Assembly: GCA_035221665.1 (NCBI GenBank)
Contig: CM069137.1
Span: 81,158,001 to 81,222,000 of the forward strand
DNA: 64,000 nucleotides
Direction of reading: 5' to 3'
Source: Okamejei kenojei
Taxonomy: Eukaryota
The notes beneath the pieces are model-generated. The model was not told the DNA's origin, ran no database searches, and was given only the letters and a program-made list of their open reading frames with translations. The position numbers and the translations under genes were made by a program. Below, in pieces: positions 1-57,273 of the stretch (positions are counted from its first letter, which is position 1; every line of letters begins with the position of its first letter).

Positions 1-388
1 TTATAACACTGACCAAGATGGATCCATTACCACAGGTTCTTGAAGTAACCAGAAGAAGGTGGCAGCTTATCCCGGAGCTACAGACCGAGCTGAAACAGAT
101 GAAACAAATGTGCTCACCAATGCCCAGTCTCAAAATGACCCTCCCTTCAATCACACAGCAGCTGAAGGAGAGCAATCAGGTTGTGGAGTTGAAAAACCTT
201 GATTTTGGAGTTCAGCTCAGTTACAGAACTGGATTGAGGTAAATCCCAGCCGGGATCAAAGTGAGGAGCTGAGTTGGGATGGATCAGACAGACAGTTGGC
301 ATTGATGGAGAAAGGAAGAATAATGCTGGTTTCACACGCAGATGGACAACTTGGGAGAAAGAACTACTCCATTTGTGAAAAGAAACTA
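1..388 (+). mobile_element. Possible degenerate retroviral/LTR pol remnant (RT connection/RNase H-like)
   Basis: Broken frames give WQLIPELQTELKQMKQ..P.L (resembles W-x-E-x-Q-AF-x-LK-x-L-x-P-x-L) and RIMLVSHADGQLGRKNYSICEKKL (resembles RPVAYASR..EKNYS.CEKELL). Weak; context with the downstream PPT/LTR supports it. Confidence 0.35.
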
Positions 389-725
389 TATTTGTGATGA
401 ATGTGGACAGACTTTCAAACAGCGGAAACACCTGTCAGTTCACTAAATGCGCCTTACTGGAGCAAAACCTTTGCAGTGTGAAGTTTGTGGTTTCCAGTGC
501 AGGCAAAGACCATCCTTGAAGTACTATATGACCAAGCACAAGGCAGAAGCTGAACTTGAATTTGCTTGTGACCAATGTGAGAAGCGGCTCGAGAAGGCTC
601 ACAATTTAAATGTGCATATGTCCATGGTTCATCCCTTGACCCAGAATACAGATAAAAATAAACCCATTGAAATTGAATCAAGTCTGCTAAGTATAGAAAC
701 ATTAATTAAACAGGAACCCAGCTAA
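382..725 (+). pseudogene. ZNF276: ZNF276 processed pseudogene, C-terminal piece (last three C2H2 fingers to stop; probable 3'UTR to ~984)
   Basis: NYICDECGQTFKQRKHLSVH*MRLTGAKPLQCEVCGFQCRQRPSLKYYMTKHKAEAELEFACDQCEKRLEKAHNLNVHMSMVHPL matches the ZNF276 C-terminus. No introns; premature TAA at 444-446; zinc-ligand His residues mutated. Confidence 0.9.
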
Positions 726-984
726 TAGTTATTGAACAGCAAAATGAGGAGTCTAAAGAATCTTGCACCCTTTTTCAGTGTGAGCAAGACACAAAGGATT
801 AACATGAATAAACGCAATCTTGTGCTGGTTGGGCAGTGTTTAATTTCAAAAGATTATAAACATCTGGTTTTATGTTTATTATTGTCAGATGTACTGAGGT
901 ACTTTGAAAAGCTTTGCTTTGCATGCTGTCCTATAAAATCAGATAATACTGTTCATCAATGCAATCACGCCAGGCTCACCTAGA

Positions 985-1143
985 GCAAAGGAAAGATTAG
1001 TGTGGAGAATATAGTTCTGAGCATTATAGCACACCAGTTCCAGAGACTAAGTCCAATGTCTGCAATGGGGTAGAGGTGAATCAGGCAGAATCCTAGCAAA
1101 TGGAAGGACTGTTCAGGACTCTGATAACAGAGGGGAAGAAGCT
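985..1143 (-). repeat. Antisense LINE 3'-tail fragment between the two ZNF276 pieces
   Basis: ...ctgataacagaggggaagaagct resembles the antisense LINE tails elsewhere in the window (e.g. ~14890-14930 tgataacagctgagaataaact). Confidence 0.55.
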
Positions 1144-2878
1144 AGTTGGTGTTGTGGTGAGGCAGGATTCCACTTTGCCACAGTATATCTGTAAGAACTG
1201 TCACGCTCAGTTTTGCAAGTGTTGGACTGTCTTGAACAAATTCATTCAAAAAGTGAATACTTCACCAGTAGCTTCAGTGCAACATGGACAACAGGCTAGC
1301 AGATGTGTTGCAGCAACTGAAACATCATCAGTGCAATCACTTTGTGTGGTATGTCAGCTGCACGGAGGCGGAGAGGAGAGCTCTTCAGCGCGTCGTCCAC
1401 AGAGTGCAACAGATTATTGGGACACCGCTACCAGACTTGGAGGGCATCTACCACACACGGTGCCTCAGGAAGGACGTCAGCATACATAACGACTCCTCTC
1501 ACCCTTGTAGTGGATTGTTCGAACTACTCCCTTCCGGCAGATGTTACAAGGCCTTCCATGCCAGCACCTCCATACTCAGGAACAGCTTCATTCCCAGAGC
1601 TATAGCGGCTCTGAACCGGCCCTGCTGAGTACCCCCCCCCCCCACCCCCATGGACTGTCTCCCCTGGCCTCGCACTTTAGTCTGTGTTGATTTTACTGGT
1701 CTAATGTTCGTTTTTACAAACCTTGTTCTCGGGGTATCTAAACCTAAATTTTATTTGTCAATGAAATTGTGACATCGGATGGAAGTTGCAAACCAAATCT
1801 CATTGCACTTTTGTTTAATGACAATAAAATATTATTATTATTATTACTTTCACAATCTCCATTAAGACTATTCTGTGTCTGGTGACTTCAAGCAGATGTT
1901 AAACGATGGTGTCTTGGTTGCAAGCCCACAGGTTCTACAGATTTTGGTCACCTGGGCTCACCATCATGGTAGTAGCTGTGATTCTCAGCCACATGTACAG
2001 AGTGTTTTAACAGCAGAGTATCGAGGAGGAGTCGGCACTGTGTGGGGGTGTCCAGAGGGCCACAGTTACATCCTGGACATGCATTCAAGTCGCAGCGTTG
2101 TTTTAAATGAGGGACAGTGCCCATCCAGTAGAAATAAGGACTCAATGGAGGAAGTTCTAGATGGTTCAAAAACCCTTTCATCTCGGAATGGAACAATGAC
2201 TGAAAATGGTGAGTGTGATAATATTGTGAAGCATCAACCAGTCCCAGTGTTAGCAGACTTTCAGCCTTGTAGGAGCCACGTGGAGCCATTTCATGGTCGG
2301 TGGATGTGGACAACTCGGAATCACCATTGAAGAAGGATATGTTCTTGCGCTCAGATCCTGAATATACAGAGTGCCCTTGGGAAAAAGTTCAGGTACAAGA
2401 TGCAACTCAACCATTAAATGTGAAAAAAACAGTTAACTGCAATGAAGCATCTTGTTCTATAAGAAATGATGTTGTGAATGGATAGGAGTCCAGTGATCTT
2501 TCTGAAAGGTATTTATCAAGTGAAGATGAAAGGGAAATAAAAGTTAAGAATGGCTCTTCAGATGAGTCTTTTCAACCATATTGGAAGAAGATGAGTAAGT
2601 TACCAGTTAAGAAGTGCAATATTAAGGATGTGAAGAAACAATCTGGACAAAAACATGGCCGGAAACCAAAGTCAAACTTGGAAAGGCAAGATTTCCCCAC
2701 CATGTATCGATGTCAGTATAAGTGTTTACAGAGAAATTGACGGACTTAAGAAACACATAAAAGAGCAGCATGAAGAGGTGTGTGGAAGACCTTGCCCCCA
2801 CGCAGGATGTAACAAGGTGTTTCTGATTGATCGCTACCTGCAGCGCCATGTAAAGCTGATCCATACAGAAGAACGAAC
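1136..2878 (+). pseudogene. ZNF276: ZNF276 processed pseudogene, N-terminal/central piece (zf-AD C-half through second C2H2 finger), interrupted by a LINE at 1344-1842
   Basis: KKLVGVVVRQDSTLPQYICKNCHAQF (ZAD); SPQVLQILVTWAHHHGSSC..EYRGGVGTVWGCPEGHSYILD; YREIDGLKKHIKEQHEEVCGRPCPHAGCNKVFLIDRYLQRHVKLIHTEER. Frameshifts and stops; no introns. Confidence 0.9.
1344..1842 (+). mobile_element. 5'-truncated Rex1/Babar-like LINE inserted into the ZNF276 retrocopy
   Basis: WYVSCTEAERRALQRVV..HPCSGLFELLPSGRCY..LRNSFIPRAI ORF2 end, AATAAA and (TAT)n tail; candidate TSD atcacttt (1336-1343) / attacttt (1843-1850). Confidence 0.8.
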
Positions 2879-3045
2879 ATCTTTACAGATCAGCAGGAAG
2901 TGCAAAGCCTTTGGTCACAACTTCGGAAAGACAAACCACATTTGATCAACAATCTTGAAGCATTTTGAGCTCTATCGTATGACCAAGGGTCTAGAGAGAG
3001 AGAAGCTGAACATTTTGAAACTGATGGACCTCTTGAAAGAGATTA
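2876..3045 (+). pseudogene. Two fused cDNA fragments of a CRACR2A/CRACR2B (EFCAB4/Rab46)-family gene
   Basis: NIFTDQQEVQSLWSQLRKDKPHLINNLEAF resembles CRACR2A [48 protein letters not shown] resembles [25 protein letters not shown]. The intervening coiled coil is missing. Paralog not determinable. Confidence 0.7.
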
Positions 3046-3785
3046 TGCATAACCCTATCCAGGAAGACAATGACTCAGACCTGGTGGGTAATCAGTGTGA
3101 TGACAATCAGGACATTGTGGGGATGGCAATTATGGTGTTTCTGATGAGAAGGACAATTGCCGTTTTGTTCCCAACCCTGACTAGATCGATGCCGATGGTG
3201 ACAGCAGAGGAGACATCTGCAAGGACGACTTTGACAACAACATCCCAGATATCTATGACATGTGCCCCGAGAACAGCGCCAGCAGTGAGACTGACCTGAC
3301 GAAGTTCCAAAGGGGATGATGCAGATCGTTGCTAACTGGGTAATGCGCAACAAGGGCAGGGAGTTACTGCAGACTGCCAACTCTGACCCTGGCCTTGCTG
3401 TCAGATTTGAGGAGTTCGACGCCATCAACTTCAGTGGCACCTTCTACGTCAACACAGACCACAATCTACGCTGGCTTTGTCTTTGGCTTCCAGTCCAGCA
3501 GCCACTTCTACGTGGTGATGTGGAGCAGGCCACACAAGCCTACTGGGAGGAGAAGCTGTCCAAACCCATGGATACACCAGCGTCTCACTCAAGGTGGTGA
3601 TCCCCACCACAGGCCGAGAGGGGGGGAACACCTGTGCAACGCTCTCTGAAGAGACTGGGAACACCCTCGGACAGGTGCAAACTTTATGGCACAACCCCAA
3701 TATCGGCTGAAAGGATTACACCGCCTACAGTTGGCACCTGACCCATCGACCCTAAACAAGCATCATCAGGATGGTTGTCAATGAA
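3046..3785 (+). pseudogene. THBS2: Thrombospondin subgroup A (THBS2-like) processed fragment: type-3 repeats plus C-terminal lectin-like domain
   Basis: HNPIQEDNDSDLVGNQCDDNQDI; [25 protein letters not shown]; NWVMRNKGRELLQTANSDPGLAV.FEEF..INFSGTFYVNT; YAGFVFGFQSSSHFYVVMW; GEHLCNAL; TGNT.GQVQTLWH; KDYTAYSWHLTHRP. Intronless, frameshifted, with internal deletions. Confidence 0.85.
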
Positions 3786-3793
3786 GAGAGTGA

Positions 3794-3963
3794 GAACTGG
3801 ATGTGATACCATTGGTTTGATGGACTTTGGGGTACTATTGAACTGGTTGCCATACCTTTGGTTTGGTGGACTTTGGGGTACTGTGATACATTATTGCTCT
3901 AACATTCTGCTAATCATTGTTCTAATAGTTGTGACCATTGTGTGTACCTACCGAGGACTGTGA
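3794..3963 (+). mobile_element. Env transmembrane-like tail remnant
   Basis: NWLPYLWFGGLWGTVIHYCSNILLIIVLIVVTIVC: Trp-rich membrane-proximal segment plus hydrophobic anchor, directly upstream of a PPT; contains a ~46-bp tandem duplication. Confidence 0.5.
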
Positions 3964-3980
3964 ATATTAACATGTTTGAT

Positions 3981-5202
3981 AAAAAAGAGGGAATGAAAGA
4001 GATAATAGTCAAATCTAATAAGGTTTTCAAAATGGAGCCATTCTACAAAAGCATGGTCTAGTAGAACAAAAGAATGGCGGTGTCAAGTCTGAATGTCTTT
4101 GCAAATTATAGGGAACACAATATGGAGGACAGGTTGTCTTTTTAATAAAGACATTAAAATGGAAACGTGCATAATAACATGTGCTTCTTTCAAAGCCATA
4201 AAGAAGCCAAGATTGAAAGAAATAGCTGATGCTAGAGAGATGTAATAACTTGTTATTGGATGATTTTGATTTGGACCCAGCTTTTCCTATATTCTGAAAG
4301 TCTATAGAATCTTTCAGTCATGCCATGGTCAGACTTTGTAGGAGAGTTTTACGGATAAGAAAAATGTATAAATGCGCTAACTTTCCTTTGTTCTGTGAGT
4401 GGAGCCCGAGAAGCACGAGCAACGTTTGTTTTGTAAGAGATGAACTTTGATAAGGGACTGAGCCTCCCGTTGTACCCTCTCTCTCCCATCTTCCGGCAGG
4501 TTACCCAGTGAGCTGGTGTCCGTGATGGACACACAATGGTTGCAGTAGCGGGGAGTGAACGTGGCGTGAGTAGCGGGCCCGTCACTGGTGCACCGCGTGT
4601 GGGGGCAAGGGCTCTGTGGTTCCTTAGCCTGTGAACTCCCACTTGTTTACCAACCCTCCCCCCCCCCCCTCCCTCCCTACGATGCCTCCGTGTTTCTTCC
4701 CTCAAGAGTCAAGAGGGTTTTATTGTCATATGTCCCAGATAGAACAATGAAATTCTTACTCGCAGCAGCAGAATAGAATATGTAAACATAGTACACTGTA
4801 AACAATATAATAAACGAGAGAGAAAAAAAAGCTCAGTGTGTATATACACATACTCACAAATATATATCATCCCACACATTGATCTATATATTGTATGTAT
4901 ACACATACGCACTCACAAATAAAACAATAATAGTGCAATAATAACAATAGTAGTCTATGTAATTCAGAACTTATTTGAGGGGTTGTAGTGTTTAGTAGCC
5001 GAATGGCTATAGGGAAGGAGCTATTCCTGAGCCTGACTTCCTAGCCTTGGATTAAACTTTACCCCTGAAGCGGTTCACGTCTTGTATAAACACAGTTTAA
5101 TATTTAAATGATACAGCTCAACAATTAGTACAAAAGGGCAAGGTGTGTTAACGTGTTGACTGTGAAATGAAGCCTAGCTCCGTCGTCTGCTGCACCCCGT
5201 CA
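3981..5202 (+). mobile_element. Polypurine tract (3981-3993) and putative 3' LTR of an ERV starting TGAAAGA at 3994
   Basis: AAAAAAGAGGGAA|TGAAAGA closely resembles the gammaretroviral PPT/U3 junction; TATAAA at ~4367; ATTAAA at 5051. The 3' end is uncertain: TCTTTCA ending 4316, or ..CCCGTCA ending 5202. Confidence 0.6.
4703..5035 (-). repeat. Antisense LINE 3' tail inserted in the putative LTR
   Basis: caagagtcaagagggttttattgtcatatg.. tail pattern shared with other LINE ends in the window. Confidence 0.6.
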
Positions 5203-17010: not shown

Positions 17011-19859
17011 CACTTTGACTCTTTCCCTTGCGATCATCTTTTTTCAAAGGCTATCCGAGTTAGCCCCTGTTAACTTACTTACCTCTTTTCGCCCTGGTGA
17101 TGCCTAACCTGATCAATAGTCCAAAATTTCCCACTTGAACAATAATACTTGTTTAATAAATTGGTAAAGTGACAGCATTTGTGTGTGTTTGAAAGCATCC
17201 CTGCCACAAGTAAGAGGTGAGTGTTTCATGGCACAAGCTAGTAAAAGGCAGTTCAAAATATTCCATATTTGCTTACAGTATGGAGGAGGTAATTTTGACC
17301 TATTGAATAAATGCTAGCTCATCAAGCTAATCCCATTCCCCACTAATTTTCCCCTAGCAGCTTCCCACCTTCTCGATTGTAGCACTGTTTTGCTGTGGCC
17401 AATCAACCTATCAACCTGTGGGATGTGGATGTGGGAGGATACCTCAATGCAGTGATAGATAATACATGCAAACTCCACACAGACAGCATCACTGGAGGTG
17501 TGAGGAAAATGCTCTAATAACTGTACTACTGTTCACATAAATAATACAAAAGAGAGCTCTGAATTAGGCTGGATTTGATTTACAGGCAGCCTAATTAAAA
17601 AATGCATAACTGTCTGGATTCTAATGAATGTTCTACATCCAAAAGATTCCTAGCGTATTCCCAGACACTGATAAATTAGATGGTTACAAGTAGCATCTTC
17701 TTTTTGCATTATTTTAGTTTTTGTTGCTTTCTCAGTCCGTCTGTATTATCAGTAAGATATTTTTTGGTTGTTACTGCATGTTTTACTGGATATTTTCCTT
17801 TCATAATCCCAGTGGATTTTGGAGCATCAATGAATCATTAATGAAGCCTTTAAGATAAATGCCACAATGTGGGTTCCATCTGGAGACGAGTTTCAAAGTC
17901 TGTATGCATTTGAATCTAAATGAGGATAATTTAAAATTTTCAGATTTTTTAGCTTTTGCATATTTTTGCCAGTTTGGATTTCAACAACAGTTCTGGCTGC
18001 GTGTTAGAGTCTTGTTGTCAGATCAAAGCCTTGGTTTCTTGGTCAATGGACAGCAAAGGGAAATCTAATGAGAGGATCAAGTACATTTTAAAACATTTAT
18101 TATGCAGGGATTATGTCAAAGGAAAGTTTGGATCAGATGGAATGGCATACAAAAATGACTGCCTCAATGGGATGTTTTACATTTATTGTTGATGCCTTCT
18201 ATGACGTATTTCTTGTTGGAAACAGAAATAATCCTATTTGAAAATTAAATTCCAGCTGAGAACCAAATGATTCTTCAACCTTTAGCGGCTAACCTAATTA
18301 GTAAGGACATTTCTAATTCCAATGCTAATTCAGGAACATTCCAATACATGTTCCTAATATAGCCATAGTTCTTAAGAAGGTTATGTTAAATGTTCAGGGC
18401 CATGTACTACTCTTGTTTCACACGAGAAACATGGATAATTAATAGATTTACATTGTAATTTGTGAACCACTACTAAAATTGCAAGTCGGCACATCTTTGA
18501 TATATCTGCGGACATCATTTCTGGAGTGGAAGTTAACCAATAACGGATAACTCGCAGTAATCGGAGATAGAAATGCAGACTCAAGAAACTGCAGGTGCTG
18601 GAATTCTTAATCGAAACACAAAGGAACTCAGCACAGCGGGCAACACCTGGGATGGGAATGGACAGGTGATGTTTCAGGTTGAGACCCTTTTTCAGACTGA
18701 TGGAAATGAATCTGGGATAGACCAACAAACTGAAGTCTACAGCAGGGCGGTTTGTCCAAAATTGGACTTTGCCCTCAGCTCGCAAACTTCATTGAGCTGG
18801 CAGTGAATTCAGTTTGCCCTTTGGAGAATATTAACCTTGATCTTCTTGTTTTGTTAGCATCTGGCCTTGGTTTTGAGGAGAAGGGACTGGGGTCACTCCA
18901 GTGTTCTGTGACACTCGATGGACAAACAACTGCAGGTCCTGTCTTCATGTGAAAAGTTATATATACATATTTTAAAATTATTTGATCTTTCTCAGCAGTG
19001 GGTGGTCCCCATCAATGTCTAGGCTAGGAAGACCTCACTGGAGCAGGGACTGCTCCTGATCAATTCAACGCAGTGCAGTTAATGAAATAGGCATCATGTT
19101 CTGTGTCACAAAGAGGCATCTCAGCATGAACCGCATAATCAAGGATAAGTTACACCCTGGCCACTCCTGCTTCTCCCCTTTCCCATCAAGCAAAAGGTGA
19201 AGATGTGCACCTCCAAATTCAGGGACAGTTTCTTCCCAGCTGTTATCAGGCAAATGAACCATCCTACCAACAACTACAGAGAAGTCCTGAGCTATATTCG
19301 AGGCATTCAGACTACCGTTGGTCGGACTTTACTGGACTTTATCTTGTACTAAACCTTATTCACATTTATCATGAGTCTGTACACTGTGGATTGCTCGATT
19401 ATAATCATGTATTGTCTTTCCGCTGACTGGTTAGCACGCAATAAAAGCTATTCACTGCACTTCAGTACACATGACAATAAACTAAACTCAAAATTAATGT
19501 GACAAACCATAGCCGAGCAAAACTAATCCTTTTTCCCCTTAAGATTATATTTTTCATCACTTTAAACCTTCTTAAACCATCATAATCATTCTTGATTGGT
19601 ACAGGTGTCAGAGGTTATGAGGAGAAGGCAGGATAATGGGGTTAGGAGAGAGAGATAGATCAGCCATGATTGAATGTGGAGTAGACTTGATGGGCCAAAT
19701 TACCTAATTCTACTACTATCATTTATGACCTTATGACATAAACAAATATAGAGGCCAAAAGGTTTGTTAGTCTGCCTTTTAGTAAATGTCACAATCAAAG
19801 ATCTTAGAGCTCTAAGATCTTTGGTCACAATGAGAGAAAAACAGAGCTTTGCATCATAA

Positions 19860-27282: not shown

Positions 27283-29155
27283 AGTTTAGTTTAGTTTAGT
27301 TTAGTTTAGTTTAATTTAGTTTAGAGATACAACGTTGAAAAAGTTATTTCAGCCCACCGAGTCCATGCCAACCAGCGATCATCCATGCACTTGTTCTATC
27401 CTAGACACATGGTACAATGTAGAGAAGCCAACATACCTACCAACCTGCACATCTTTGCTACCTGAGTCCCGGTGCAGAGACCTGGCTGGCGAACTGGCAG
27501 GAGCTGGAGATGAAAGTCGTCACCCGGTGGGGCGCTGGGCGGTTCTCCTCAGAGTGCTTTCCTACCGGGACAGGGTGCTGGTCATTAACCAACTCGTGGC
27601 CTCCATGCTCTGGTACAGATTGACCGCATTGGTCCCATCAGCCACTTTGCTGGGATCATCCAGAAGACGTTGGTGGACTTCTTCTGGGACAACGGAAAGC
27701 ACTGGGTCTCTGCAACGGTCCTGAGTCTCCCGATCGAGGAGGGGGGGTTAGTCGCTGGTGTGCATAAGTTGGCGGCTCTCCGCCTCAGGACCCTGCAGAG
27801 AAACCTGTACTCAGGGCATCCTTGCAGGTGGCACGTACTTTTTCCAACGGGGCCGCTGCCTTCAAGGAGGTACGCGGATCCAGATGGTGGGCGTCAGCCG
27901 TGCGGTCCTGCTGGGGATGCCCGGCTTCTACAGGGACTTGTTGAGAGTCTGGAACCTGGTTGCCATCGACCAGGCCCCCCCTCCGCCGGTGGAGGGCGAC
28001 GGCCCGGGCGTGAGAGCAGCCGGTCCTTGTCCCGCCCCACCAGGTGTCGGGGGGGCTCAAATGTGTGGAGTACTTGGGGTTGAGCAAACCCCCGCTCAGC
28101 CAGAAGTATTCCTCGAACCCAGGCGCCGTAATCCATCCCGGGAGCCGGTCCCACACAATTTGAGCTGCCTTTCCTCGACACCCTTCATCTCCCTCTGAGA
28201 CGCAGGGAGGCGTGTCCAGTACAGGCTCCTCCTCCACACCCTGCACTTCCTCGCCCTGGTTCACTGTCCGGACACTAAGTGGCGGTCGGTGTTGCCTTCC
28301 TGTCACGAGGGGGAGGCCCCGGTGGGGGTCCCTCTACGCAGGGATTCTCCCCCTCTACATTGGGGACGTGGGGTGGAGGGTATTGCACCGAGGTGTTCCC
28401 TGCAACCTGTATCTCTCGCGGTTCACAGACTCGCCAGCCGCCTGCCACTTTTGCGGTCTGGAAGAGTCTGTGTACCACGTGTACATGGAGTGTGTGAAGC
28501 TGCAGCCACTGTTTGAATATCTAAAGGGGCTGCTCCTTGCCTTCTGGCTGCATTGTTCACCTACCATTCTCATCCTTGGACACTCTGTGCGTAGGGGAGA
28601 GGGTAGGGCTGAAGATGACCTGGTTGGGTTGCTCCTGGGCCTGGTCAAGCTGGCCACCCACGAGTCAAGGCGCCAGGCGGTGGAGGGGTCTACCCGAGCC
28701 GGTTGCTTGCCCCTTTTCCGGGGTTACGTCCATGCCCGGGTGGGGTTAGAAAGGGAATACGCCCCTTCCACGGGCACCCTGGGGGAGTTCCGGGACCACT
28801 GGGCTCCGCAGGGTGTTGTATGCGTCCTCAATAAGGATTGTAACGTAGTTGTATAGTAGTTTATTATGGATATATGTTTGTATTGTATTATGGTGGTGGG
28901 TTCTGGCTTGTTGTTTTATAGTGTAAATATTATTTTTCAATAATTGAATACATTTTTTGATTAAAAAAATAAATTTAAAAATACCCCAAAAAAACCTGCA
29001 CAGCTTTGGAGTGTGAGAGGAAACCGGAGCCCCCGGAAAAAACTCACGCTGTCACAGGGAGAGTGTACAAACTCCAAGCACCCGCAGTCGGATCAAGCTC
29101 TGGTCTCTGGTGTTGTAGGGCAGCAACTCTACTGTTGCGCCACCGTGCCGCCCAG
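27283..29155 (-). mobile_element. HE1/V-SINE split by a Tx1 insertion
   Basis: (TTTAG)n tail and 3' half at 27283-27457; 5' half resumes at ~28993-29155. Confidence 0.75.
27458..28992 (+). mobile_element. Tx1-clade L1 LINE, 5'-truncated ORF2
   Basis: LSYRDRVLVINQLVASMLWY, DFFW..KHWVS..LSLPIEEGG, zf-RVT WRVLHRGVPCN..CHFCGLEESVYHVYMEC; A-rich tail; 16-bp TSD aacctgcacatctttg / aacctgcacagctttg. Confidence 0.9.
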
Positions 29156-42599: not shown

Positions 42600-44920
42600 A
42601 CCCAATCATCATCGCAGTCAGTCGAAACGAGTATGACTGTCCTCTCCATAAGGTAGTCTAGTTGTGGGTCTACAGATGTCTGTAGATGCCGATCCACGAT
42701 CCATGCACCTTAGTGCAATGTGGGCAGTGGAGACTGGTGGTGGTTGGTAATCCTGCACGGATTTCCTCCAGGAGTGCCTGTCCATGCAATGTGCTCCCAC
42801 TTGATGTGATGTGGAATTTCGTCAGACTGTTCTTGATGTCCTTGAAGCATTTATTTGGCCCGCGGGGGGGGGGGTGGGGGGGTCGCCAACCTTCCTTCAA
42901 TTAAGAGTACAGGATTTTAGGGAGGTGTGTTAGACATATGGATGACATGGCCAGTCCATCGAGGTTATTGCTGCATTATTGTGGTGGTGATGCTGGTCAT
43001 GTTGGCTTCCTCCAAAACGCTGTTGTTGGTGCGTTTGTCCTCCCAGCTGATCCTCAGAATCTTTCGTAAGGATCTTTGATGGTATTGTTCCAGGGCTCTC
43101 AGGTGCCTGCTGTAGGTGGTCCATGACTCGGCTCCATACAACAGGGTGGAGAGGACAACGGCTCTGTAGACCAGCAGTTTTGTTTGAGCCTTTAGGTCTC
43201 GGTCTTCAAAGACTCTTTTCCTGAGTCTGGCGTAGGCTCTGCTGGCACAACTCAGGTGATGGTTGACCTCAGAGTCGATGTCAGCTTTTGAGGAAAGAAT
43301 GCTGCCAAGGTAGGGGAAGTGGTCAACGTTTTCAAGAGTGGTGTCGTCCACTTTTATAGTGGGCTGGGTAGACAGCTGGTTGGGTGGAGGTTGATGTAGG
43401 ACCTGGGTCTTCTTGATATTTAAGGCTAGGCCCATGGCTCTGTATGCCTTGGCAAAGGCATTCAGGATGCCCTGGAGGTCTTCTGCAGAGTGTGCTGCAA
43501 TGGGGCAATCGTCCACTCACTGAAGCTCCATGATGGCGGTGTCACTGACTTTGCTCTTGGCCCTCCACCTATTAAGGTTGAAGAGCCCACCGTCAGTTCT
43601 GTAGAGGATTGGGATCCCATGTAGCAGCTCCTCACCGATGAGCTGAAGTATGGCAGCAATGAAGACGACAAACAGGGTGGGTGCGATGATGCATCCCTGT
43701 TTGACCCCCGTTTCTTGATGGCATCTTGAACCGCTGTCATAGTGGGAGGTTCATCCATGTCTTCTCTGATGGGACGCTGGGGATGCGGTGAGTAATATCT
43801 GGTTCAGTTGCGCTGTAATGGTTGAGGAGTTCCTGGAAGTGCTCTTTCCATCGGGCGTTAATGGATTCATTGTCCTTCAGCAGTTCTTATCCATCTTTTG
43901 AGCGCAGGAAGGTTAAGCCACGGTAACTTGCACCGTATTCAGCCTTAGTAGCGCTGAAGAAGCCTCAGGCGTCACCCGAGTCTGGCAGTCTCTGGATTTC
44001 CAGAACCTTTCCTGTCCATCAAGAGTTCTTAAGCTCCCTCACCCGGCTCTGAACATCCACCTTGGCTCTGGAGTGAGCCGCTATTTTGGCCTTGCAGGTT
44101 ACATCATTTTTCCAGGCACGAAAGGCTTTCCTTTTCTTGGAGATGAGCTGCTCTATCTCTGTGTCGTTCTCGTCAAACCAGTCCTGGTGTTTTATGGACT
44201 TGCACCCAAGGATGTTTTTACAGGTATCATGGATGGTGCATTTGAGCCAGCTCCAGGCTCTTCAATGTCATCAGGATGTTCCTGTTGGAGGCTTTCCCCA
44301 AGAGAAGCCTGAAATCGCTGCGGGGTGGCAGTTTCCTCCAGGCTTTCAAGGTTCATCCTTGGCCGGATCTGTTTCATTTGAATCCTCCTCTTCCTCTCGA
44401 GTATGATGGACATCATGGAGCAGATGAGGCGATGATCTGTCCAGCAGTCATCTGCATCGATCATGGCCCTTGTGATGTTCACGTCACGGCGGTCCCTGGC
44501 TCGTACAATGACATAGTCAATGAGATGCCACTGTTTAGAACGTGGGTGTGTCCAAGATGCCTTTAGTTTGTTTTTCTGGCGAAAGAGGATGTTAGTGATG
44601 ATGAGGTCATGCTGAGCACATTTGTTAAGAAGCAGAGCTCCATTGATGTTCCCGATAGCCTTCCTTTCCTATGGTACCCTTTCAGAGATGTTGGTCCTGG
44701 CCGACCCTGGTGTTGAAGTCTCATAGGAGAATAATCTTATCCTCCCTGGGGATTTTAGACAGTGTCTCTTCCAAGCAGGCGTAGAAGGTCTCTTTTACTT
44801 CCTCTTCAGACTCTAAAGTAGGGGCATAGGCACTCACAACTGTTGCCATCTGGTTGTTGGCAAACACTAGACGGACGGTCATGAGACGCTCACTGATCTG
44901 GTAATCCAATAGATTGGGTT
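42600..44920 (-). mobile_element. RTE-clade LINE (endonuclease plus RT), degraded
   Basis: ISERLMTVRL..ATVVSAYAPTL..KETFY (APE); DCWTDHRLI; DDCPIAAHSAEDLQ..GLALNIKKTQVL..VDHFPYLGS..LVYRAVVLSTLLYGAESWT. Confidence 0.92.
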
Positions 44921-45094: not shown

Positions 45095-45352
45095 TCTTCT
45101 GGGCCTATGTCCGTGCTCGCGTGACCCTGGAGAGGGAACACACGGTGCCCACGAGGACTCTAGAGGCCTTCCGTGAATGCTGGTCGCCGCAGGGGTGGGG
45201 GGGGGGGGGGGGTCGAGTGTATTGTAGATAAAGATGGCACAATTGTATTATAATGATTGCCCGATGTAATGTGACTATTGAAAGTATACCTTCTGGTATA
45301 CTGTAAAATGGAAAAACTGAATAAATTCCTTGTTAATGAGAAGGAAAAAAAA
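45095..45352 (+). mobile_element. Tx1-like LINE extreme 3' end
   Basis: Similar to 28700-28960 (YVRARV.LEREH...F...W.PQG.VEC), with AATAAA and an A tail. Confidence 0.7.
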
Positions 45353-45365
45353 GTGGTCCCACACA

Positions 45366-45561
45366 NNNNNNNNNNNNNNNNNNNNNNNNNNNNNNNNNNN
45401 NNNNNNNNNNNNNNNNNNNNNNNNNNNNNNNNNNNNNNNNNNNNNNNNNNNNNNNNNNNNNNNNNNNNNNNNNNNNNNNNNNNNNNNNNNNNNNNNNNNN
45501 NNNNNNNNNNNNNNNNNNNNNNNNNNNNNNNNNNNNNNNNNNNNNNNNNNNNNNNNNNNNN
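45366..45561. other. Assembly gap (196 N)
   Basis: Run of N. Confidence 1.
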
Positions 45562-48786: not shown

Positions 48787-50030
48787 ATGGAGAAAGTTGC
48801 GAAAAAGTCTGCCGTCCGTAGCAGGAGTTTAACTCGCGGGCCCGCCGTTAGTGCTCGCAGATTGGATAGGGAAATACCGGTTGCGGTAACGCCGGCTCTG
48901 ACGCTGACTGCAGCTCAACTGTCTCCATTAACTCCAGTGCCTCAGGGTGCTGAGGCCACTCCAGCAGGGAGAAAGGCCAAACGGAAATCTGTCAGGCCCG
49001 TTTTACCTGACGAGTCTGATGAAGAAGACTCCCCTCCTTCCAACCAAGAAGGTCTGGGGATGTCTAGATCAAATGGAAAGAATGCTTCAGACAATGATGA
49101 GCCATGAAGTATTCCAATCGGGGTCGCATGCCCCTAGGATTCCCCAAACAGCCTCAGGCAGAGGCCCATATGGCGAGGAGGACTTCACCGCCGATGAGTA
49201 TCAATCGGAATCACCCTCGCCAGCACCTTGTTTAGGGCTGGTAGAGACCTCCCTAGAGCAAGACTCAGGAGAGCCAGGGCAGGAGGAGTCTGACCCTGAA
49301 GTTGGTGTCACTGCCCTTGGGCACACACCAAGGCACATGAGCCACGCTCCAGGTGTCCCGGATGTGGCTAGAAAATTTGCCATTCCGGAGGGTACTGGTG
49401 AAGCCATAGAGGAAAATCTGGCTTCTAATATTAACTACATGGCCTCTCACCAGCTACAGGATTCCATTATGGAACAGACGACCACGCGTTACCAGACACC
49501 TGGTGCCCAGCGTGAACTCTGCTAACTGGGCACAAATGAGCGCAACGATGCGTGGACAAGAGATTCGTTTCCAGCGAGTCCTCAAATTAGTGGGGGCAGG
49601 GATCACAGCTTTCAGGAAAATGGTCACCGATGTCCGGGACACAGCAGGATACGTTGGCCCTGCTGTGCAATGCATACTTCGAGATCAACTGCATCCGGAA
49701 AATTGCTATCAAGGTAACGTTGAACCCACGCTTTGCAGCTCTGTGTAGGTCCTCAAATATTCAAGCGCCAAATTTTCTATTTGGCGTAGACCTGCTCAAA
49801 CAGGTCAAAGACCTGGAGGAAGATGCCAAAACCATTGGCCTCATGAAAGCGTACATACCTTCGGCCAGGATGCCACCTCGCAGGTCTTTCTCAACAAGAC
49901 GGGCGTCAGATCCTGGTGCAGGCCCAAGCAGAGTGGTACCAGTTGGACGCCGTCCTTATCCACCTGTGTACGCCAACCACAACCCGAGCATGGCAAGGAG
50001 AACGAGAAGTTCTAGGTCGACTATGGAGGT
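48787..50030 (+). pseudogene. DIRS ORF1 (gag-like), frameshifted
   Basis: Low-complexity N-terminus, then PSVNSANWAQM..QDTLALLCNAYFEINCIRK..LNPRFAALC..FLFGVDL; position upstream of RT. Confidence 0.65.
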
Positions 50031-51176
50031 ACGGGTAACTCATTCAGTCCAGGATAAATCCGCTGGGGAACAACCTCCGGTTGGGGGAAGGTTACAGTTA
50101 TTTTATGATGAATGGTGCTGCATAACATCTGATCTGTTTATACTGGACACTGTCTCAGGGTCTCAAATAGAGTTTATGTCAGGTTTACATCCACCTGCAC
50201 AAAATATGCCTAGTCGGGTATTGTTTTTTTCTGGACCAGAAACTCTGCCGGTAAATGAAGAAATTGGGGTTTTGTTCCAAAAAGGGGTAATCGAGAGGAC
50301 GATATACCATCCTCAACAATTTGTGTCCAATATATTCCCCAAACAGAAAAAAGATGGTGGGTGTCAAGTCATTCTGGACCTAACCCAGTTAAATTCCTAT
50401 GTCCAGTGTAGGCATTTTAAAATGGACACCTTCAATACTGCTAAACAGCTGTTATCAAAAGATTGTTATATGGCAACTATAGATCTGAAAGATGCATATT
50501 ATTCAGTACCAATTCATCATCCGTACCATAGATACTTGAAATTTAGTTGGATGGGACAGCTGTGGCAATTTAAAGCATTGCCCAATGGGTTAACCTCAGC
50601 TCCTAGGTTGTTCACAAAATTGTTAAAACCAGTTCTGGTGCTACTTCATGCCCAGAATCACATTGTGATGGCTTATCTAGATGATATATTAATTATAAGC
50701 AACACTCAGGAAACAGTGAGTCAGTTTTAGCAACCAAACACCTGTTTGAGAGGTTATGTTTTCTTGTCCATCCAACAAAATCCAAGCTAGAGCCATCCCA
50801 AAAAATTAACTATTTGGGGTTTGTCATTGATTCAGTTGATATGTCAGTGACTTTGCTGTTGAAATCACGGAGGTCTGTACCAGTCTTGTAGAAAAGCAAC
50901 AACCCTCCATCCCGGCAAGTAGCCAGTGTTATTGGTAAATTGGTGGCGGCTTTCCCTGCAGTGGAGTTTGGACCTCTGCACTATCAAAGTTTGCAACAAG
51001 CTAGAGAACAAGCACTTAAAGAACATGCAGGTCATTTTGACAGACCTATGCAGTTGCCAGCCAAAGCCATCGCCGAATTACAATGGTGGATAATCAATGT
51101 TGCACTAAGTATCAAAAACATTTTGATTCAACAACCGTCAGTGGTATTACAAACAGATGTTAGTGCTTTGGGATAA
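50030..51176 (+). pseudogene. DIRS RT/RNase H, frameshifted
   Basis: PVGGRLQLF..W; FVSNIFPKQKKDGG..ILDL..LN; IDLKDAYY; LPNGLTSAPRLFTKLLKPV; YLDD; ELQWW..LQTDVSALG. Confidence 0.92.
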
Positions 51177-55649: not shown

Positions 55650-57273
55650 CAGTGGCTTGCAAAAGTATTCATACCCCTTGAACTTTTCCACATTTTGTCA
55701 CGTTACAACCACAAACGTAAATGTATTTTATTGGGATTTTATGCGATAGACCTACACAAAGTGGTGCATAATTGTGAAGTGGAAGGAAAATGATACATGC
55801 TTTTCAAATTGTTTTACAAATAAAAAACTGAAAAGTGTGGCGTGCAAAAGTATTCAGCCCCCTTTACTCTGATACACCTAAATAAAACCCAGTGCAACCA
55901 ATTGCCTTCAGAAGTCACCTAATTAGTAAATAGAGTCCACTTGTGTGTAATCTAATCTCAGTATAAATACAGCTGTTCTGTGAAGGCCTCAGAGGTATGT
56001 TAGAGAACATTAGTGAACAAACAATGTTCCTTGGGCATCATGAAGCCCAAGGAACACACCAGACAGGTCAGGGATAAAGTTGTGGAGAAGTTTGAAGCAG
56101 GGTGAGGTTATAAAAAAAATCCCAAGCTTTGAACATCTCACGGAGCACTGTTCAATCCATCATCCGAAAATGGAAAGAGTATGGCACAACTGCAAACCTA
56201 CCAAGACATGGCGGTCCACCTAAACTGACAGGCCGGGCAAGGAGAGCATTGATCAGAGAAGCAGCCAAGAGGCCCATGGTAACTCTGGAGGAGCTGCAAA
56301 GATCCACAGCTCAGGTGGGAGAATCTGTCCACAGGACAACTATTAGTCGTGCACTCCACAAATCGGGCCTTTATGGAAGAGTGGCAAAAAGAAAGCCATT
56401 GTTGAAACAAAGCCATAAGAAGTCCCGTTTGCAGTTTGCCACAAGCCATGTGGGGGACACAGGAAACATGTGGAGGAAGGTGCTCTGGTCTGATGAGACC
56501 AAAATTGAAGTTTTTGGCCTAAATGCAGAACGCTATGTATGGCAGAAAACTAACAATGCACATCACCCTGAACACACCATCCCCACTTTGAAACATGGTG
56601 GTGGCAGCATCATGCTGTGGGGATGCTTTTCTTCAGCAGGGACAGGGAAGCTGGTCAGAGTTGATGGGAAGATGGATGGAGCCAAATACAGGGCATCTTG
56701 GAAGAAAACCTGTTAGAGTCTGCAAAAGACTTGAGACTGGAGCGGAGGTTCACCTTCCAGCAGGACAACGACCCTAGACATACAGCCAGAGTTAAAATGG
56801 AATGGTTTAGATCAAAGCATATTCATGTGTTAGAATGGCCTAGTCAAAGTCCAGACCTAAATTCAATTGAGAATCTCTGGCAAACTTGAAAATTGCTGTT
56901 CACAGACGCTCTCCATCCAATCTGACTGAGCTTGAGCTATTTTACAAAGAAGAATGGGCAAAAATTTCAGTTTCTAGATGTGCAAAGCTGGTAGAGACAT
57001 ACCCCAACAGATTTGCAGCTGTAATTGCAGCGAAAGGTAGTTCTACAAAGTATTGACTCAGGAGGGCTGAATACTTTTGCACGCCACACTTTTCAGTTTT
57101 TTATTTGTAATACAATTTGGAAACCATGTATCATTTTCCTTCCACTTCACGATTATGCACCGCTTTGTGTTGGTCGATGACATAAAATCCCAATAAAAAA
57201 CATTTACGTTTGTGGTTGTAACGTGACAAATGTGGAAAAGTTCAAGGGGTATGAATACTTTTGCAAGCCACTG
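55650..57273 (+). mobile_element. Tc1/mariner DD34E transposon, Passport-like, full length (1624 bp)
   Basis: TA TSDs; ~210-bp TIRs starting CAGTGGCTTGCAAAAGTATTCATACCCC with an internal direct repeat (gcaaaagtattcagcccc). Confidence 0.97.
56040..57056 (+). pseudogene. Tc1 transposase, disrupted (TGA at ~56103 and frameshifts)
   Basis: MKPKEHTRQVRDKVVEKFEAG*GYKK; WSDETK; QQDNDPRH; [15 protein letters not shown]; ends STKY*. Confidence 0.93.

Follow-up and report, generated by a model that had tools for sequence, protein, structure and literature searches.

A permuted ZNF276 retrocopy carried as cargo by a repeated, putative LTR-type element of rajid skates

Introduction

How does the copy of a spliced mRNA come to lie in a genome with its 3' part ahead of its 5' part? 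Permuted retrocopies are usually read as a sign that a circular RNA or DNA was involved, and the question is raised here by a copy of ZNF276 near the start of a 64,000-nt stretch of skate DNA (the window; all coordinates refer to it). The initial annotation had proposed that reverse transcriptase (RT) entered one ZNF276 mRNA in mid-coding sequence, copied toward its 5' end, jumped to the surviving 3' fragment of the same molecule and ran off at its own entry point, with a circular RNA or cDNA as the alternative. In this study, the pieces of this locus, their junctions and their relatives in sequencing runs of skates were compared, and the competing explanations were weighed.

Results

Order and abutment of the ZNF276 pieces

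Alignment of Amblyraja ZNF276 (P0004, 631 aa) to the window by tblastn placed aa 517-631 at 378-722 with 93.9% identity, and aa 106-173, 173-178, 181-313, 317-463 and 469-518 in five segments at 1139-2876. The coding end of the gene with its presumed 3' untranslated region (UTR) (aa 518-631; 382-1143) thus precedes aa 105-518 (1137-2877), and the order first reported is confirmed by this alignment. The block comprises the following features.

382 to 725, forward strand: 3' coding piece of ZNF276, aa 518-631 with its stop codon, lacking introns (that at PLQ/CEV of L001 is absent), with a premature stop at codon 539; located by tblastn.
726 to 867, forward strand: presumed ZNF276 3'UTR, directly after the stop, without a poly(A) tract; an RNA-type contig covers 546-771.
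868 to 1143, reverse strand: antisense 3' end of an old non-LTR repeat, which we take to be Rex1-like, cut at a 7-nt microhomology (1137-1143).
1137 to 1343, forward strand: ZNF276 aa 105/106-173, the C-terminal part of the ZAD; Amblyraja match and RNA-type contig.
1344 to 1845, forward strand: later, 5'-truncated non-LTR insertion, presumably also Rex1-like, with an (ATT)n tail and a 5-nt target duplication (1339-1343 and 1846-1850).
1846 to 2877, forward strand: ZNF276 aa 173-518/519, lacking introns and broken by frameshifts and a stop, ending 9 nt past the HT/EER exon junction.

The 5' piece reads through codon R518 and one further base, to 2877, and the first base of the 3' piece, 382, is the second base of codon 518. 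The near-seamless join that had been claimed for the two pieces is therefore upheld: there is no large overlap or gap, the exact overlap is 3 nt (GAA), extending to about 8 nt with two mismatches at 378-381, where the parent bases at the break are those inferred from the protein and from the two halves themselves. The chance of two independent breakpoints meeting within 3 nt is about 0.003-0.004. The 5' piece had been described as running from the ZAD to IHTEER; its end, at codon 518, is as described, but it begins only inside the ZAD, at aa 105/106. Neither a match to ZNF276 aa 1-104 nor a second ZNF276 segment was found anywhere within the window.

Both junctions of the block with its flanks are present in other copies. 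Among the 32 of 21,489 contig records listed, the left junction is bridged by record 17 of run X18 (233-544) and record 25 of run X6 (270-483, 23 differences), and the right junction by record 21 of X18 (2649-2915); an assembly artefact is thereby ruled out. A 30-mer across the right junction had 0 matches in metagenome contigs, and the joint of the parent mRNA, 2877 to 382, was not among the 15 of 114 joints listed.

Gene structure, divergence and host lineage

Exon boundaries were taken from L001, a bony-fish-like ZNF276 contig (its taxon was assigned from its C-terminus), in which a splice acceptor lies inside the first E codon of HTEER and is followed by a 100-nt exon and then an intron at PLQ/CEV. 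Gene model P0002, with an insertion after HT, marks the same boundary. The window lacks both of these introns, skate intron positions being assumed to be conserved, and by the L001 ortholog the break falls within an exon, 6-9 nt from its edge, and not at an exon boundary, the position that the initial annotation had linked to a circular RNA origin. In a further gene model, P0001 (Discoglossus pictus ZNF276, 1155 aa), zinc fingers one to three are apparently duplicated in tandem.

The two halves are equally diverged, in keeping with the initial annotation. Private amino acid changes number 6/113 in the 3' half and 30/403 in the 5' half (P=0.53), and nucleotide differences from RNA-type contigs are 27/523 and 11/207 (P=1.0). 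Only the contig with 11/207 differences, of 810 nt and aligned through its positions 432-638 to 1137-1343, is clearly parent mRNA, because it continues for 431 further bases upstream.

Among cartilaginous fish, the queried stretch was matched best (88%) by ZNF276 proteins of the skates Amblyraja, Leucoraja and Rhinoraja. Eleven sites (12 flagged columns) are diagnostic, with one state common to Amblyraja and Leucoraja and not found in Rhinoraja and Mobula. Of these, five single sites and one column show the rajid state in the window, four the older state and two a third residue; the extra rajid-state column adjoins a short deletion that the window also shares. These rajid states indicate that the capture probably took place in rajid skates.

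The closing junction and the repeats inside the block

The repeat ahead of the 5' piece spans 868-1143, not 985-1143 as first given. The tail of the repeat comes first, as would be the case for a resident of a 3'UTR, its family boundary falls at 869/874, and other copies run on past 1143, as seen in the loose ends of contigs. Since it is only 59% identical to another copy in the window (19227-19493), it is far older than the capture, and it was probably resident in the 3'UTR of the parent ZNF276 gene, as judged from its sequence and position. At the closing junction, 7 nt (1137-1143) are common to ZNF276 codons 105-107 and the antisense repeat, and in no register of this overlap do GT and AG occur together. 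No A tract was found in 726-1143.

The 5' piece is split by the insertion at 1344-1845, which was the last to arrive; sequence depth over it is 30-100 times that of the surrounding element.

EFCAB4B on both flanks

The sequences on either side of the block belong to a second gene, EFCAB4B (CRACR2A).

1 to 208, forward strand: piece of the same repeated element, with depth like the rest of it.
209 to 244, forward strand: EFCAB4B aa 460-471, ahead of more N-terminal pieces; 10/12 residues identical to Amblyraja P0150.
242 to 364, forward strand: EFCAB4B aa 110 to 149/150, with one frameshift near 311; 20/24 and 7/9 identical to P0150.
365 to 381, forward strand: 17-nt spacer between the left GAAC and the ZNF276 3' piece.
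2875 to 2965, forward strand: EFCAB4B aa 149/150-179, directly continuing 242-364; 22/30 identical to P0150.
2967 to 3047, forward strand: EFCAB4B aa 328-353, by match to EFCAB4B.

EFCAB4B is interrupted by the ZNF276 block at codon 149/150; nothing is lost there, and 4 nt are duplicated (GAAC at 361-364 and 2875-2878). The chance of EFCAB4B resuming with only such a duplication is about 0.004. As the initial annotation required, the upstream flank, of which 381 nt lie within the window, is not the N-terminal half of ZNF276. Most of the spacer falls within a stretch (362-378) that imperfectly repeats the first bases of the ZNF276 3' piece (14 matches in 17 columns, shuffle P=0.0011), and 15 of 3918 local windows score as high. 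Record 17 of X18 spans the spacer with a single gap, which is assigned to position 311; other copies have a 1-nt gap at 311 of the EFCAB4B piece.

The identity of the EFCAB4B pieces comes from a representative-sequence search. ESM Atlas searches gave no usable match, a PDB search with 2879-2962 gave no match, and a homolog search with 2876-3049 scored 0 of 11 candidates. For 1-394, the Pfam families BicD (E=8.6e-5) and HECW_N (E=0.019) were rejected, both being below their cut-offs. The leftmost 208 nt had no usable family or ESM Atlas match; positions 21-44 weakly match EFCAB4B aa 450-457 (7/8 residues, E=0.19). This match ends two residues before the EFCAB4B piece at 209, and a 164-nt piece may be nested in EFCAB4B there.

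EFCAB4B is about twice as diverged as ZNF276: private amino acid changes are 15/96 versus 36/516 (P=0.008), and 10/55 versus 32/432 in invariant columns only (P=0.018). In one contig of X6, a joint from 360 to 2875 connects the EFCAB4B halves without ZNF276, with at least 39 nt on each side. The higher divergence and this joint suggest capture in layers, with an earlier element that lacked ZNF276. However, the joint, seen in a single contig whose part between is recorded as "not known," may instead have arisen later, by deletion at the GAAC repeat, and EFCAB4B evolves faster in batoids, which may inflate its private changes.

A repeated, putative LTR-type element

Downstream of EFCAB4B, the cargo continues and ends in features of an LTR-type element.

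3047 to 3787, forward strand: thrombospondin fragment, type 3 repeats and C-terminal domain, colinear, ending before the stop; Pfam TSP_C, E=2.9e-12.
3790 to 3963, forward strand: Trp-rich stretch and hydrophobic segment within the open reading frame (ORF) 3742-3963, which we take to resemble the end of an envelope transmembrane protein.
3981 to 3993, forward strand: 13-purine tract, with TG directly after it.
3994 to 4535, forward strand: LTR-like repeat, TG...CA, with a TATA-like box near 4366 and a presumed right end.

The best PDB match of the thrombospondin fragment is thrombospondin-2 (E=3.3e-31 and 1.1e-20); by eye, it seems to be one type 3 repeat short at 3047-3125. Record 14 of X17 and record 24 of X18 were left out of any dating of this fragment, since parent and element copies could not be told apart in them. 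The envelope-like ORF had no Pfam match, and a search of viral contigs gave 68 pattern hits, 0 of them confirmed. This stretch contains a 46-nt tandem duplication (3794-3882, 88% identical) that is skipped in a contig of X6.

We infer the LTR identity of 3994-4535 from its motifs and from depth, which rises about 8-fold over 4083-4396, with one contig starting at 3990; no database match was obtained for it. All identified cargo is in sense orientation relative to the purine tract and this putative LTR. Loose ends at 4361 and 4416 are common to X17 and X18, both typed as RNA by guess only, and suggest LTR subfamilies with different right-hand parts. After the CA at 4534-4535, there is one base and then TGG, like a primer-binding site (window 4531-4680); no tRNA gene for a matching primer was found within the window. 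Depth in 4554-4700 is above that of one locus (183 in X1), and a second, truncated leader may also follow this LTR in a tandem arrangement.

Depth and joints come from four of the 23 listed runs and from organisms A and B only; contigs that bridge the junctions are present in both. In X1, summed contig depth was 1,785-3,718 over 1-785 and 2042-3925, compared with 15.8 for a single-locus contig (3 differences). By summed contig depth, a measure that does not itself give a copy number, the element thus reaches roughly 100-200 times one locus, which we take as a rough indication of at least about a hundred copies. The window and the six X1 contigs listed inside the element differ by approximately 8-13%. 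Across five organisms (A to E), 0.21-0.35 of the words were found in DNA-type or untyped runs. Depth drops to 273 (X1) and 379 (X6) at 1885-2041, and joints from 1176 to 2059 (8 letters fit either side) and from 1131 to 2062 are among those listed; it follows that most copies have lost this part.

The ZNF276 retrocopy therefore does not stand alone. With EFCAB4B on both flanks and the whole block repeated, it forms part of the cargo that a repeated LTR-type element carries in rajid skates, together with pieces of EFCAB4B and thrombospondin. The reading frames of this copy are broken by stops and frameshifts, and it shows no sign of function.

Elsewhere in the window, a 379-codon open frame with YLDD (49591-50730) has what we take to be reverse-transcriptase-like, DIRS-like motifs, and a 200-codon frame (56114-56716) presumably resembles a Tc1-type transposase. 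Fragments at 42965-44668 and 27589-28856 are, we assume, from non-LTR elements of RTE-like and Tx1-like types, and an assembly gap of N lies near 45300-45500.

Discussion

A model of template switching

The best model, which we consider rather probable, is that RT switched templates at microhomologies, looped once over one ZNF276 mRNA and returned to its point of departure. The single-molecule jump of the initial annotation is retained in it as a proposal; what that annotation missed was the setting, the cargo of an LTR-type element with several captured genes, and the lossless interruption of EFCAB4B. Pieces of EFCAB4B and thrombospondin would already have been aboard a nonautonomous LTR-type element at the start. 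During a single later round of minus-strand synthesis, running right to left in the window, RT would have passed, at the 3-nt GAA microhomology, from the element RNA to codon 518 of a copackaged ZNF276 mRNA. It would have copied to codon 105, switched at the 7-nt microhomology into the old 3'UTR repeat of the same mRNA, and copied back to its own entry point, where the template, cut by RNase H, would have ended. After a miscopied stutter of 17 nt, RT would have resumed on the element RNA where it had left. The new element would then have been amplified, and 1177-2058 later lost from most copies.

From right to left, the proposed path runs through the LTR, thrombospondin, EFCAB4B 353-328 and 179-149, ZNF276 518-105, the ZNF276 UTR back to 518, EFCAB4B 150-110 and EFCAB4B 471-460. 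Along it, template reuse does not exceed 3-4 nt, and at two points the path jumps 3'-ward into sequence not yet copied; EFCAB4B aa 460-471, placed before aa 110, reflects the same type of 3'-ward jump as in ZNF276. This pattern would fit RNase H-coupled switching. The microhomologies at the switches are 3 nt (2875-2877) and 7 nt (1137-1143), with parent bases partly inferred, and the left junction carries the spacer. RNase H-dependent copy-choice switching is described in the available part of PMC3187697.

In a wider form of this model, the family gathered host mRNA in layers, and the ZNF276 loop was copied exactly once and set losslessly into earlier cargo. We hold this tentatively, at a little under even chances. 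If true, the locus records a general one-pass rule of RT, in which no template base is copied twice and the enzyme returns to its departure point, and subfamilies without ZNF276, with full-length ZNF276 and with deleted ZNF276 preserve the successive steps.

Alternative explanations

No feature cleanly separates an RT loop from a circle opened at the same microhomology. Of the circular alternative raised at the outset, the form that survives is a ZNF276 cDNA circle not made by splicing, closed at the 7-nt microhomology and joined to the DNA of the element through a single microhomology-mediated crossover at GAA(C). One event, with microhomology at both ends, would then account for the permuted order as well as for the split of EFCAB4B without loss, and the spacer resembles a templated insertion of the type made during DNA repair. 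However, this requires a free, spliced cDNA circle that hit what later became the source copy of the element, gives the sense orientation only an even chance and leaves the out-of-order EFCAB4B piece unexplained; we regard it as the chief rival, but as unlikely.

Alternatively, the template may have been a ZNF276 RNA already broken at codon 518, both fragments of which were copied, or an RNA circle, not made by splicing, copied for one round. Either predicts the same abutment, and a model in which breaks in the RNA force copy choice has been described (PMC3187697, in part). The 7-nt closing microhomology, however, is expected of template switching and not of ligation, and the return to the same position in EFCAB4B is not explained by such a template by itself, which makes this distinctly improbable.

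Two independent captures, or trimming of a tandem duplicate of a colinear retrocopy, are very improbable. The family does show deletions at microhomologies (the 8-letter joint from 1176 to 2059), but the ZNF276 ends and the EFCAB4B ends would each have to meet within 3-4 nt (about 0.004 for each), the halves are equally diverged and the window holds no second ZNF276 segment.

A pseudogene of a back-spliced circular RNA (circRNA), like the mouse circRFWD2 copies, is scarcely credible here, even with the noncolinear order, missing poly(A), many copies and LTR context that it shares with the cases in the available part of PMC4897178. The closing junction joins the UTR of the last exon to the middle of the ZAD, with no register that has both GT and AG; alternative gene models diverge near aa 54 and not aa 105; and the opening point lies inside an exon, though a circle would allow that. 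A LINE-made processed pseudogene was rejected, there being no poly(A) tail with flanking target duplication and the flanks being fragments of other mRNAs. Duplication through a circular DNA intermediate has by definition a genomic source with introns; its permuted order with one shared opening point is found here, but the block is intronless, and a genomic source was rejected, leaving a cDNA circle as the possible form.

Comparison with known systems

The element likely belongs among the LTR-mediated retrocopies; a predicted matching 5' LTR and a target duplication of the whole element would lie upstream of position 1. It has a spliced-mRNA origin, microhomology at switch points, amplification with shared junctions, and truncated ends with neither poly(A) nor target duplication, the only repeat being the 4-nt GAAC. 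In the available text of Tan et al. (2016; PMC5131818), such retrocopies likewise join partial spliced mRNAs of several genes, with a median microhomology of 6 bp at switches, no poly(A), extra sequence at some junctions and secondary amplification as nonautonomous elements. Mouse "Super," with four genes and a SINE in MERVL, and CG17604_r of Drosophila are cases described there; Super has 8 switch values for its 4 genes, and a permuted piece may lie within it. In contrast to the Drosophila cases, in all of which captured sequence replaced element sequence, the skate ZNF276 was inserted losslessly into earlier cargo and is permuted. The strings "circular" and "rearrang" occur 0 times in the main text of that paper (PMC5131818).

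The circRFWD2 pseudogenes (PMC4897178, in the part available) are likewise noncolinear retrocopies, with 33 high-confidence copies, LTR-enriched flanks and few A tails. Their junction is a back-splice of exon 6 to exon 2, whereas the closing junction in the skate joins a 3'UTR repeat to mid-coding sequence at a microhomology. In the same source, Dong et al. (2016) considered that RT acting over structured linear RNA could yield noncolinear copies (PMC4897178). Maize Bs1, as far as the available texts describe it, is also an LTR element with host gene fragments, three in its case, and shared switch points (PMC5131818, PMC13317346); it has one to five copies and formed a new chimeric gene, whereas the skate element has about a hundred or more and broken frames in this copy. 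Forced and dynamic copy choice in retroviruses likewise involves RNase H-dependent switching within and between RNAs and deletions with insertions (PMC3187697, in part), but it was measured on viral vectors, whereas the skate case is inferred from a germline fossil of a host mRNA. A literature search that covered few subscription papers listed neither this element nor any permuted retrocopy borne by an LTR element. The element is thus a variation on known LTR-mediated retroposition: permuted, inserted losslessly into older cargo and amplified.

In conclusion, a closing junction that is not a splice junction, found inside an LTR-type element, indicates that template switching by itself is probably enough to produce a permuted order, a point relevant to the reading of circRNA-derived pseudogenes. 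Since the element is repeated and common to at least two skate species, the order of capture and its junctions can be tested on existing assemblies. The dispersed ZNF276, EFCAB4B and thrombospondin fragments would confound read mapping in skates and the annotation of those genes.
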